38,946 nt of DNA from NCBI RefSeq assembly GCF_003334255.1, contig NZ_QOWU01000055.1; one strand, 5' to 3'. The stretch is from Escherichia coli. Its GTDB lineage: Bacteria > Pseudomonadota > Gammaproteobacteria > Enterobacterales > Enterobacteriaceae. Numbering within the stretch: the stretch's first letter is position 1; every line of letters starts with the position of its first letter. Made by a program: the position numbers and the translations under genes. Positions 1,520 to 5,397 of the stretch are shown here, one piece after another. Under the pieces are notes generated by a model that was given only the letters and a program-made list of their open reading frames with translations, searched no databases and was not told where the DNA came from.

Positions 1520-2953
1520 ATGAATAAGAAATCGTTATGGAAGCTAATTCTGATATTAGCGATCCCATGTATTATTGGTTTTATGCCAGCTCCGGCAGGA
1601 TTAAGCGAACTGGCGTGGGTGCTTTTTGGTATTTACCTGGCGGCCATTGTGGGGCTGGTTATCAAGCCTTTCCCGGAACCTGTCGTACTGTTAATTGCCG
1701 TTGCTGCCTCAATGGTGGTGGTCGGTAACTTATCCGACGGTGCGTTTAAAACCACCGCCGTATTAAGCGGTTACTCTTCAGGTACCACCTGGCTGGTGTT
1801 CTCGGCGTTTACCTTAAGCGCCGCATTTGTGACCACCGGTTTAGGTAAACGTATTGCCTATCTGCTGATTGGTAAAATCGGTAACACCACGCTGGGTCTG
1901 GGTTACGTTACGGTATTCCTCGATCTGGTACTGGCTCCGGCAACACCGTCTAACACCGCGCGTGCGGGCGGCATTGTGTTACCGATCATCAACAGCGTGG
2001 CGGTGGCTTTGGGGTCCGAACCGGAAAAAAGTCCGCGTCGTGTCGGACATTACCTGATGATGTCCATTTACATGGTCACCAAAACCACCAGCTATATGTT
2101 CTTTACCGCAATGGCGGGGAACATTCTGGCGCTGAAAATGATCAACGACATTCTGCACCTGCAAATTAGCTGGGGTGGATGGGCGCTGGCAGCCGGATTG
2201 CCGGGCATCATTATGCTGCTGGTCACCCCGCTGGTGATTTACACCATGTATCCACCAGAAATTAAGAAGGTGGATAACAAAACCATCGCTAAAGCGGGCC
2301 TTGCCGAACTAGGACCGATGAAAATCCGCGAAAAAATGCTGCTCGGTGTCTTTGTGCTGGCGCTGCTGGGCTGGATTTTCAGTAAGTCTCTGGGGGTTGA
2401 TGAATCCACCGTGGCAATCGTTGTTATGGCAACCATGCTGCTGCTGGGTATCGTTACCTGGGAAGACGTGGTTAAAAATAAAGGCGGCTGGAATACCTTA
2501 ATCTGGTACGGCGGTATTATCGGCTTAAGCTCCTTATTATCGAAAGTTAAATTCTTCGAATGGTTAGCTGAAGTCTTTAAAAATAACCTGGCATTTGATG
2601 GTCACGGTAACGTTGCTTTCTTCGTTATTATTTTCCTCAGCATTATCGTGCGTTATTTCTTCGCTTCCGGTAGTGCCTATATCGTTGCTATGTTACCGGT
2701 ATTTGCCATGCTGGCGAACGTCTCCGGCGCACCGTTAATGTTAACCGCGCTGGCACTGTTGTTCTCCAACTCCTATGGCGGCATGGTTACTCACTATGGC
2801 GGCGCGGCAGGTCCGGTCATCTTTGGCGTGGGTTATAACGATATTAAATCCTGGTGGTTGGTCGGTGCGGTACTGACGATATTAACCTTCCTGGTGCATA
2901 TCACCCTCGGCGTGTGGTGGTGGAATATGCTGATCGGCTGGAACATGCTGTAA
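1520..2953 (+). CDS. ybhI: DASS-family (divalent anion:Na+ symporter-like) membrane transporter, putative di/tricarboxylate permease
   Basis: 477-aa highly hydrophobic ORF with multiple predicted TM segments; family assignment from sequence recognition and synteny. Confidence 0.85.
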   Translation: MNKKSLWKLILILAIPCIIGFMPAPAGLSELAWVLFGIYLAAIVGLVIKPFPEPVVLLIAVAASMVVVGNLSDGAFKTTAVLSGYSSGTTWLVFSAFTLSAAFVTTGLGKRIAYLLIGKIGNTTLGLGYVTVFLDLVLAPATPSNTARAGGIVLPIINSVAVALGSEPEKSPRRVGHYLMMSIYMVTKTTSYMFFTAMAGNILALKMINDILHLQISWGGWALAAGLPGIIMLLVTPLVIYTMYPPEIKKVDNKTIAKAGLAELGPMKIREKMLLGVFVLALLGWIFSKSLGVDESTVAIVVMATMLLLGIVTWEDVVKNKGGWNTLIWYGGIIGLSSLLSKVKFFEWLAEVFKNNLAFDGHGNVAFFVIIFLSIIVRYFFASGSAYIVAMLPVFAMLANVSGAPLMLTALALLFSNSYGGMVTHYGGAAGPVIFGVGYNDIKSWWLVGAVLTILTFLVHITLGVWWWNMLIGWNML

Positions 2954-2956
2954 ATA

Positions 2957-3083
2957 TTCTCGTCATACTTCAAGTTGCATGTGCTGCGTCTGCGTTCGCT
3001 CACCCCAGTCACTTACTTATGTAAGCTCCTGGGGATTCACTCGCTTGTCGCCTTCCTGCAACTCGAATTATTTAGAGTATATC
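2957..3083. repeat. ERIC/IRU intergenic repeat element
   Basis: Contains exact matches to both classical ERIC primer sequences: CGCTCACCCCAGTCACTTACTT (2997-3018, reverse complement of ERIC2) and ATGTAAGCTCCTGGGGATTCAC (3019-3040, ERIC1R). Outer boundaries are approximate. Confidence 0.85.
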
Positions 3084-3096
3084 CATTTATTATCTT

Positions 3097-3120
3097 TCTG
3101 CGCACTTCACGGTGCGCAGA
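3097..3120 (+). promoter_or_regulatory. Stem-loop (9-bp stem TCTGCGCAC/GTGCGCAGA, 6-nt loop) immediately upstream of the ybhJ RBS
   Basis: Inverted repeat read directly; sits between the ERIC element and the GGAG Shine-Dalgarno (3126-3129) of ybhJ. No T-run follows, so not a classical terminator. Confidence 0.4.
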
Positions 3121-3135
3121 TATCTGGAGCATTTG

Positions 3136-5397
3136 ATGATCAAGTTATCTGAAAAAGGCGTGTTTCTCGCCAGTAATAACGAAATAATTGCCGAAGAACA
3201 TTTCACCGGCGAAATTAAAAAAGAAGAAGCCAAAAAAGGCACTATTGCCTGGTCTATTCTCTCTTCGCATAATACGTCCGGAAATATGGATAAACTTAAA
3301 ATTAAGTTTGATTCATTAGCCTCTCACGATATTACCTTTGTTGGTATTGTACAGACCGCTAAAGCGTCCGGTATGGAACGTTTCCCGCTGCCGTATGTGC
3401 TGACCAACTGCCATAACTCACTCTGCGCCGTCGGCGGCACTATTAACGGTGATGACCATGTTTTTGGTTTATCGGCGGCCCAGCGTTATGGCGGTATTTT
3501 TGTGCCTCCGCATATTGCGGTCATCCATCAATATATGCGTGAGATGATGGCAGGCGGCGGCAAAATGATCCTCGGGTCAGACAGCCACACCCGTTACGGT
3601 GCATTAGGGACAATGGCAGTCGGTGAGGGCGGCGGTGAGTTGGTAAAACAGCTGCTTAATGACACCTGGGATATCGACTATCCGGGCGTGGTTGCGGTGC
3701 ATCTGACCGGAAAACCTGCGCCGTATGTGGGGCCACAGGATGTGGCGCTGGCTATCATTGGCGCGGTGTTCAAAAACGGTTACGTCAAAAACAAAGTCAT
3801 GGAGTTCGTTGGACCGGGCGTTAGCGCGCTCTCTACCGATTTCCGTAACAGCGTTGACGTGATGACCACTGAAACGACCTGTTTAAGTTCTGTCTGGCAA
3901 ACCGATGAAGAAGTCCATAACTGGCTGGCGCTGCACGGTCGCGGCCAGGATTACTGCCAGCTTAACCCTCAACCGATGGCGTACTACGATGGCTGCATCA
4001 GCGTTGATTTAAGCGCCATCAAACCAATGATTGCGCTGCCGTTCCACCCGAGCAACGTGTATGAAATCGACACACTGAACCAGAACCTGACCGACATTCT
4101 GCGTGAGATTGAAATTGAGTCCGAACGCGTGGCGCACGGTAAAGCCAAACTCTCGCTGCTGGATAAAGTGGAAAATGGTCGCCTGAAAGTGCAGCAGGGG
4201 ATTATCGCGGGCTGTTCTGGCGGTAACTACGAAAACGTCATCGCGGCGGCGAATGCACTGCGCGGTCAATCCTGTGGCAATGACACCTTCTCGCTGGCAG
4301 TTTACCCGTCATCACAGCCGGTGTTTATGGATCTCGCCAAAAAAGGTGTGGTAGCAGATTTGATTGGCGCAGGCGCAATCATCAGAACCGCGTTCTGCGG
4401 CCCATGCTTTGGCGCGGGCGATACGCCAATCAACAACGGTTTGAGTATTCGCCACACCACGCGTAACTTCCCGAACCGCGAAGGCTCTAAGCCAGCTAAT
4501 GGGCAGATGTCAGCGGTGGCGTTGATGGACGCTCGTTCTATCGCTGCGACTGCGGCAAACGGTGGCTATTTAACCTCTGCCAGCGAACTTGATTGCTGGG
4601 ACAACGTGCCGGAGTACGCCTTCGATGTAACGCCGTATAAAAACCGTGTTTATCAGGGCTTTGTGAAAGGGGCAACTCAGCAACCGCTGATTTACGGGCC
4701 GAACATTAAAGACTGGCCGGAATTGGGTGCGCTGACTGACAATATCGTCCTGAAAGTGTGCTCGAAGATCCTCGACGAAGTGACCACCACCGACGAACTG
4801 ATTCCTTCCGGTGAAACCTCTTCTTATCGTTCAAATCCGATTGGTCTGGCGGAGTTTACCCTGTCTCGCCGCGATCCCGGTTATGTTAGCAGAAGTAAAG
4901 CGACTGCTGAGCTGGAAAATCAGCGTCTGGCGGGGAATGTCAGCGAGCTGACAGAGGTGTTTGCGCGCATTAAGCAGATTGCTGGTCAGGAGCATATTGA
5001 TCCGCTGCAAACTGAAATTGGCAGCATGGTCTATGCGGTGAAACCAGGCGATGGTTCTGCGCGTGAACAGGCGGCGAGCTGCCAGCGTGTGATTGGCGGT
5101 CTGGCGAATATTGCCGAGGAGTACGCGACTAAACGCTATCGTTCTAACGTCATCAACTGGGGGATGTTACCGCTGCAAATGGCGGAAGTACCAACCTTTG
5201 AAGTGGGGGATTACATTTACATCCCTGGCATTAAAGCGGCGCTGGATAATCCGGGTACGACGTTTAAAGGTTATGTGATCCATGAAGATGCGCCGGTAAC
5301 GGAAATTACGCTCTATATGGAAAGTCTGACTGCTGAAGAGCGCGAGATTATCAAGGCGGGTAGTTTGATTAACTTCAATAAAAACCGTCAGATGTAA
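3136..5397 (+). CDS. ybhJ: Aconitase-family protein (putative hydratase/dehydratase)
   Basis: ORF track frame 3112..5397; ATG at 3136 preferred (GGAG 6 nt upstream) giving 753 aa. Aconitase-family resemblance across the whole length. Confidence 0.85.

Follow-up and report, generated by a model that had tools for sequence, protein, structure and literature searches.

A fixed ERIC element and an apparently older, covarying RNA stem-loop in the ybhI–ybhJ spacer of Escherichia coli

The closest described counterparts of the spacer considered here are the ERIC/IRU/RU-1 elements (MITEEc1 in ISfinder) and, as regards effects at the RNA level, the ERICs located at the 3' ends of genes in Yersinia. 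According to reviews, ERIC/IRU elements in E. coli go back to Sharples & Lloyd (1990) and Hulton et al. (1991), and Wilson & Sharp (2006) surveyed them. The reviews also state that ERICs are transcribed together with neighbouring genes, form folded structures in the RNA and can influence how stable an mRNA is. As these reviews relay the work of De Gregorio (2005), ribosomes block the folding of 3'-end ERICs in Yersinia, whereby an RNase E site within the 3' terminal repeat becomes accessible; the upstream transcript is lowered, and the effect depends on the orientation of the element. E. coli contains approximately 10–20 ERIC copies, whereas Yersinia contains many more. A second group of comparable structures is formed by intercistronic stem-loops, such as the REP in malE–malF, and by the 5' stabiliser of ompA.

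The window analyzed here, that is, the whole stretch of 38,946 nt from E. coli contig NZ_QOWU01000055.1 (assembly GCF_003334255.1), carries three co-oriented genes: ybhH, encoding a putative isomerase (392–1444), ybhI, encoding a putative tricarboxylate transporter (1520–2953, plus strand), and ybhJ, encoding a putative hydratase of the aconitase family (ATG at 3136–3138, end at 5397, plus strand). Their limits were taken from the RefSeq record of K-12 and, in the case of ybhI and its stop codon TAA (2951–2953, plus strand), also from the open reading frame. The divergent regulator gene ybhD is located upstream of ybhHIJ. The spacer between ybhI and ybhJ comprises 182 nt (2954–3135), and the 701 bases around it show 100% identity to E. 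coli K-12 MG1655 and its derivatives. In the K-12 RefSeq record, no repeat feature is annotated within this spacer. A genome paper published in 2021 reports, using MobileElementFinder, one MITEEc1 between ybhJ and ybhI and classes it as a MITE of the IS630 family and as an ERIC sequence; the ERIC copy at this locus is already published, and the element itself has been catalogued in E. coli since 1990–91.

As the earlier note on this DNA had stated, both ERIC primer sequences occur in the spacer verbatim. ERIC1R (ATGTAAGCTCCTGGGGATTCAC) has an exact match at 3019–3040 on the plus strand and ERIC2 (AAGTAAGTGACTGGGGTGAGCG) at 2997–3018 on the minus strand, whereas 100 shuffles of the window contained neither. 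The two strings appear together in 246 papers, being the standard ERIC-PCR pair. Their sites make up the conserved 44-bp ERIC core (2997–3040), which includes the core inverted repeat (3003–3016/3021–3034). The boundaries of the element were set by alignment with a second E. coli copy, located between cusC and cusF, the sequence common to both extending from 2953 to 3080. According to this alignment and the primer sites, the body of the ERIC/IRU/MITEEc1 element has a length of 123 bp (2957–3079, minus strand) and is flanked by a TA dinucleotide on the left (2955–2956) and another on the right (3080–3081). Both are putative target-site duplications, since reviews give TA at ERIC termini; in the cusC–cusF copy, the left dinucleotide is TA and the right one is TG. 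The ybhI–ybhJ spacers of Citrobacter were too diverged to reveal the pre-insertion sequence of the site. Body and flanking TAs together measure 127 bp, which is the canonical ERIC size quoted in reviews. The spacer had been described as almost entirely ERIC; the element is indeed present, but its 127 of 182 nt amount to approximately 70%.

The inverted-repeat finder and the RNA fold placed the terminal inverted repeat arms, each of 26 nt and 77% complementary to one another, at 2954–2979 (left) and 3057–3082 (right). The right arm is AU-rich in the mRNA (UGCAACUCGAAUUAUUUAGAGUAUAU) and contains a candidate RNase E site, GA|AUU, at 3065–3069. Relative to the ERIC consensus as usually published, the mRNA holds the reverse-complement strand, which places the AU-rich arm (…CUCGAAUUAUUUAGAGUAUAU) on the 3' side. 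K-12 has a private A-to-T change at 2958; neither the other strains compared nor E. albertii nor the cus copy has it. The element resembles ERIC/IRU/RU-1 (MITEEc1) in length, in the 44-bp core, in the terminal repeats that bound a unit of about 127 bp, in the TA dinucleotides, in the dispersed copies and in its intergenic, RNA-foldable character, with nothing substantial unlike. Judged by its sequence, it is a complete, ordinary ERIC/IRU (MITEEc1) copy.

The only match in a search of Rfam was a full-length one (model positions 1–129) to RF02818 (V_AS5, Vibrio RNA AS5) at 2959–3082 on the minus strand, with a score of 46.9 bits (E = 9.3e-09) that is well below the gathering score of 96. The core and the stem architecture are alike in both cases; however, the matching strand is antisense to ybhI–ybhJ, and the family was defined in Vibrio. 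It is possible that this "antisense RNA" family itself represents an ERIC-type repeat.

An E. coli B strain without the ybh locus has its best ERIC match between cusC and cusF, in a copy with 99.2% identity. This copy (L092, 2501–2628, E. coli B C3029) is located inside the cusCFBA copper-efflux operon, where it begins 4 nt past the cusC stop codon, ends 25 nt short of the cusF start codon and has the same orientation to transcription as the copy at ybhI–ybhJ. Since cusCFBA is well expressed and inducible, it would be better suited to tests of how an ERIC acts on mRNA. The ERIC core also varies between strains: some of them, such as E. coli p11A (L093), contain GTGAC in place of GCTCC at the equivalent of window positions 3026–3028. 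This variant makes the central palindrome perfect and shifts the predicted sense fold from approximately −42 to −53 kcal/mol. To judge by the sequences, the change looks like a templated or gene-conversion event rather than three independent substitutions.

The distribution of the element was assessed in all 5426 complete E. coli genomes. The ERIC alone matched a median of 11 similar places per genome (maximum 21). A 211-nt query consisting of the ERIC with both flanks, at least 80% of which had to be covered, was found in 5332 of the 5426 genomes, and the hairpin region described below was found in 5339, which means that nearly every genome with the spacer also has the ERIC. The other 87 genomes appear to miss the whole region. 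Precise removal of the ERIC would leave the sequence ...CTGTAAATATCCATTT...; the empty site was sought with a 47-nt artificial junction, in which each flank is too short to seed in ERIC-bearing genomes, and this query, which presumes the exact empty-site sequence, had no matches in the E. coli genomes.

Outside E. coli, the same ERIC at the same site was found in E. albertii and in one metagenome contig. Spacers of 62–102 nt without an ERIC were found in Citrobacter youngae, C. gillenii, Citrobacter sp. FP75 and two Citrobacter-like contigs, as well as in Edwardsiella hoshinae and E. tarda. Three Citrobacter-like contigs (L083, L087 and L088) have a spacer of 25 nt and no hairpin. By these comparisons, the ERIC insertion is Escherichia-specific, older than the split of E. 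coli and E. albertii, and effectively fixed. Since the ERIC is fixed, E. coli offers no natural contrast between presence and absence, and the comparison of spacers suggested in the earlier note works between genera but not within E. coli and E. albertii. The spacer of Intestinirhabdus alba (L006, 3304–3499; 196 nt) is unrelated to ERIC, is GC-rich and contains several inverted repeats; it may hold a different inserted element.

Between the ERIC and ybhJ, an AU-rich, single-stranded linker (3082–3096, plus strand) is followed by a separate stem-loop (3097–3120, plus strand). Its arms (3097–3105/3112–3120) form 9 bp with 100% complementarity around a loop of 6 nt, and a U3106–G3111 wobble pair is present beyond the nine Watson–Crick pairs. 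The predicted RNA fold has an energy of −17.0 kcal/mol (z = −6.9), and one match to the hairpin pattern was found in the window, where 0.02 would be expected by chance. The stem-loop ends 5 nt before the Shine–Dalgarno sequence of ybhJ (GGAG, 3126–3129, plus strand, read from the sequence), and the A of the AUG codon follows 16 nt downstream of its 3' end. Both the perfect 9-bp stem and its distance from the Shine–Dalgarno sequence had been reported correctly beforehand; the hairpin had also been said to overlap the initiation region of ybhJ, whereas it adjoins the Shine–Dalgarno sequence without overlapping it.

The hairpin is a single-copy structure, with a median of one place per genome in the 5339 E. 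coli genomes, and Rfam gave no match to it even at E ≤ 10. A REP/BIME repeat was considered as its possible identity and was ruled out by this median of one place per genome together with the single match in the window. In addition, an imperfect inverted repeat of 16 nt (3117–3132/3136–3151, 81% complementary) spans the Shine–Dalgarno sequence and the first ybhJ codons and has four nucleotides (CAGA) in common with the 3' arm of the hairpin. It could provide an alternative pairing that hides the ribosome-binding site; it is missing from the minimum-energy fold.

A stem-loop is predicted to end 2–6 nt before GGAG in all ten spacers of at least 60 nt (nine lineages), although the stem-loop sequences differ, and GGAG itself is unchanged in every orthologue with a spacer of this length. 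The AU-rich tract also precedes the hairpin in orthologues that lack the ERIC. In each of the ten spacers the sense strand gives the more stable fold, with a margin of 1.0 to 10.1 kcal/mol over the antisense strand that results from G–U pairs. In a small alignment of seven sequences from five lineages, with a structure derived from those same sequences, 94.3% of cells were paired and changes on both sides were observed at 6 of 10 pairs; none of 500 shuffles reached these values, and shifted registers of the alignment collapsed. Within E. coli and E. albertii, variation is limited to positions of the loop. These data indicate that the hairpin is probably an RNA-level structure on the ybhJ leader.

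The position of the hairpin follows the downstream Shine–Dalgarno sequence and not the upstream stop codon. From the comparison of lineages, the hairpin predates the ERIC and is not an accessory of it. No such hairpin was found upstream of distant YbhJ homologues (Klebsiella, Enterobacter and Firmicutes), and on this sampling it is specific to the ybhHIJ-type cluster. It is seemingly dispensable in some backgrounds, since three lineages have the 25-nt spacer and no hairpin. In comparison with known intercistronic stem-loops (the malE–malF REP) and 5' stabilisers of the ompA type, the ybhJ hairpin is likewise stable, covarying and located between co-oriented genes, after AU-rich sequence of the kind at which RNase E typically enters; unlike them, it is a single-copy structure, is not a REP, is tied to a Shine–Dalgarno sequence and is missing in the three lineages with 25-nt spacers.

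Scans for the sigma-70 consensus and for intrinsic terminators predicted no promoter-like or terminator-like sites in the spacer, which makes co-transcription of ybhI and ybhJ through the ERIC likely; the ERIC is probably part of the ybhI–ybhJ transcript. The element adjoins the upstream stop codon: the stop occupies 2951–2953 and is followed by the terminal repeat from 2954 and the body from 2957, so that a ribosome terminating on ybhI can reach the left arm. Since the 5' arm of the ERIC follows directly after the stop codon, terminating ribosomes could keep this arm open. In the mRNA, the 3' arm is AU-rich and carries GA|AUU, and the orientation class of De Gregorio (2005) is assigned to this copy by analogy.

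Like the stop-proximal ERICs of Yersinia enterocolitica, the ybhI–ybhJ copy is operon-internal, with its 5' arm at the stop codon and an AU-rich 3' arm; it differs from them in that it is known from its sequence geometry, from which we infer the orientation class. By this analogy, it would have the right geometry for the Yersinia mechanism. The assignment to the destabilising orientation also leans on what the abstract of the 2005 Yersinia study reportedly states.

It is very probable, in our estimate, that the spacer comprises layers of two ages, an old native leader with the hairpin and a younger ERIC; the way in which they would most likely work, with the ERIC promoting mRNA decay, is inferred. 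The older layer would consist of the AU-rich tract, the GC-rich stem-loop, the Shine–Dalgarno sequence and the ybhJ start codon. The ERIC, as a non-autonomous element, would have entered a TA located two bases past the ybhI stop codon in the common ancestor of E. coli and E. albertii. The genes ybhH, ybhI and ybhJ would be carried on one transcript that reads through the ERIC, whose RNA would form a long imperfect hairpin. Ribosomes terminating at the ybhI stop codon would hold the 5' arm open and leave the AU-rich 3' arm exposed to RNase E, with the outcome that ybhHI mRNA would be lower relative to ybhJ. The conserved stem-loop would then be situated near the 5' end of the ybhJ fragment, which it would protect, and it may also keep the ribosome-binding site free of long-range pairing. 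Even without the ERIC, the native spacer would resemble an entry point for RNase E with a protective structure behind it. Against this model, if the ERIC were cut in its 3' arm, 20–30 unpaired nucleotides would remain before the hairpin, which exceeds the tolerance of classical 5' stabilisers such as that of ompA.

The size of the ERIC effect is probably modest, and a neutral passenger is nearly as likely. The earlier note supposed that the ERIC could alter the stability or translation of ybhJ mRNA and may decouple ybhJ from ybhHI. Its general premise that ERICs are transcribed and form RNA hairpins is backed by reviews of De Gregorio (2005); however, the effect that these reviews describe is destabilisation of the upstream transcript, here ybhHI, and not a direct effect on downstream translation. 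The functional idea should point mainly to the stability of ybhHI mRNA rather than to ybhJ translation.

Among the other explanations, the one that survives best is that the ERIC is a neutral passenger, inert, fixed and without measurable influence on either ybhHI or ybhJ; its persistence would be due solely to the lack of an excision mechanism in E. coli and to the tolerance of the site. We regard this as a substantial possibility, though not quite an even one. The predicted ERIC RNA is a long imperfect hairpin, separate from the small one, and its sense-strand fold (−39.6 kcal/mol, z = −4.8) is weaker than the antisense fold (−49.3 kcal/mol), by approximately 10 kcal/mol in K-12 and in every variant examined. 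That the transcribed strand has the weaker fold is consistent with an inert element, and so is the lack of compensatory variation in the ERIC stem inside E. coli. Orthologues work with spacers of 25–102 nt that contain no ERIC, and the ERICs of E. coli are few and static (median 11 per genome), the ybhI–ybhJ copy being fixed. However, stop-adjacent ERICs of Yersinia have, according to the reviews, a demonstrated orientation-dependent effect, and both of the operon-internal copies considered here (2 of 2) have the same orientation and the same proximity to a stop codon, a sample that is far too small. A candidate compensatory pair in the ERIC stem of an O121 strain (2990 C>T, 3043 G>A) was rejected, as the two positions are not a predicted pair; with these changes unpaired, there is no sign of selection on the sense ERIC fold within E. 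coli.

The two-layer reading can also be taken further, in that the stem-loop would be a selected post-transcriptional element of ybhJ and the ERIC would have acquired a role in adjusting the ratio of ybhHI to ybhJ, by way of an RNase E site whose exposure depends on translation. We consider this stronger version unlikely. If true, the stem-loop would be a processing-site anchor or a 5' stabiliser through which the expression of ybhJ is set without dependence on ybhHI, and at this locus the ERIC mechanism of Yersinia would for the first time be seen to function in E. coli. In a study of YbhD, deletion of ybhD raises ybhH, and ybhHI is named as Nac-regulated while ybhJ is treated separately, which hints at uncoupling of ybhJ from ybhHI. 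Data sets of 5' and 3' ends, namely the table of Adams et al. (2021) and the SMRT-Cappable-seq supplements, in which the genes are not mentioned, contained nothing in the spacer, probably because YbhD represses the operon.

Separate treatment of ybhJ would also fit an internal promoter, formed by AT-rich sequence in the linker and at the right ERIC end (for example TATTAT, 3088–3093), that drives a ybhJ transcript from approximately 3098–3102. In that case the hairpin would stabilise a primary transcript at its 5' end, and ybhJ would be decoupled from YbhD/Nac control. The hexamer, as read from the sequence, agrees with the −10 consensus in five of six positions, an AT-rich tract precedes the hairpin in every orthologue, and the one study that gives ybhHI as the YbhD/Nac-regulated unit mentions ybhJ apart. 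On the other hand, the consensus scan found no promoter in the spacer, there is no acceptable −35 hexamer at 16–18 nt upstream (GAATTA), and a start 7 nt past the hexamer would land within the stem, in its 5' arm. Nor is a start listed here in the table of Adams et al. (2021). An internal promoter is, on balance, improbable.

A stable GC-rich stem (−17 kcal/mol) between two genes could in principle serve as a terminator or attenuator, with ybhHI transcripts ending at 3097–3120 before ybhJ. This is highly improbable, as no U tract follows the stem in E. coli (AUAUCUGGAG; tail AUAUCUGG) or in any orthologue, the terminator scan did not call the site, and the position is kept relative to the downstream Shine–Dalgarno sequence and not to the upstream stop codon. 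It is hardly credible that the hairpin is instead a DNA palindrome for a regulator such as YbhD: the dyad of 9 bp is perfect in E. coli and the divergent LysR-type regulator YbhD controls the cluster, but the pairing is conserved between genera while the sequence is not, the reported YbhD binding is at ybhH and ybhI, and the orthologues use one to four G–U pairs, with antisense folds weaker by up to 10 kcal/mol, which would be unexpected for a double-stranded DNA site.

The ERIC at ybhI–ybhJ is thus a known element at a known locus and matters little by itself. The one small new point concerns ybhJ, a poorly characterised gene of the aconitase family, whose leader would carry the older, covarying stem-loop as an RNA structure. 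The spacer would be a clean test bed for whether stop-proximal ERICs influence mRNA decay in E. coli in the way described for Yersinia.

Several minor observations concern the surrounding genes. In at least two E. coli genomes, an IS1A insertion splits the match to the region of approximately 2700–3400. YbhJ is patchily distributed in Enterobacteriaceae, being found in Escherichia, some Citrobacter, Edwardsiella and Intestinirhabdus; the next-best genome matches after these belong to Lachnospiraceae and other Clostridia (67–74% protein identity), and the YbhJ homologues of Klebsiella and Enterobacter (74–76% identity) are located in another gene context. This pattern in the sequence matches suggests horizontal transfer of the gene or of the cluster. 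A supplementary table of Adams et al. (2021) also contains an entry antisense to ybhJ (K-12 position 805363, minus strand; approximately 4996 in the window), at which a simple scan of the minus strand found no sigma-70 consensus. In addition, Shinhara et al. (2011) described a cis-antisense sRNA candidate, ECS012, inside the ybhJ coding region, with a Northern band of approximately 120 nt.
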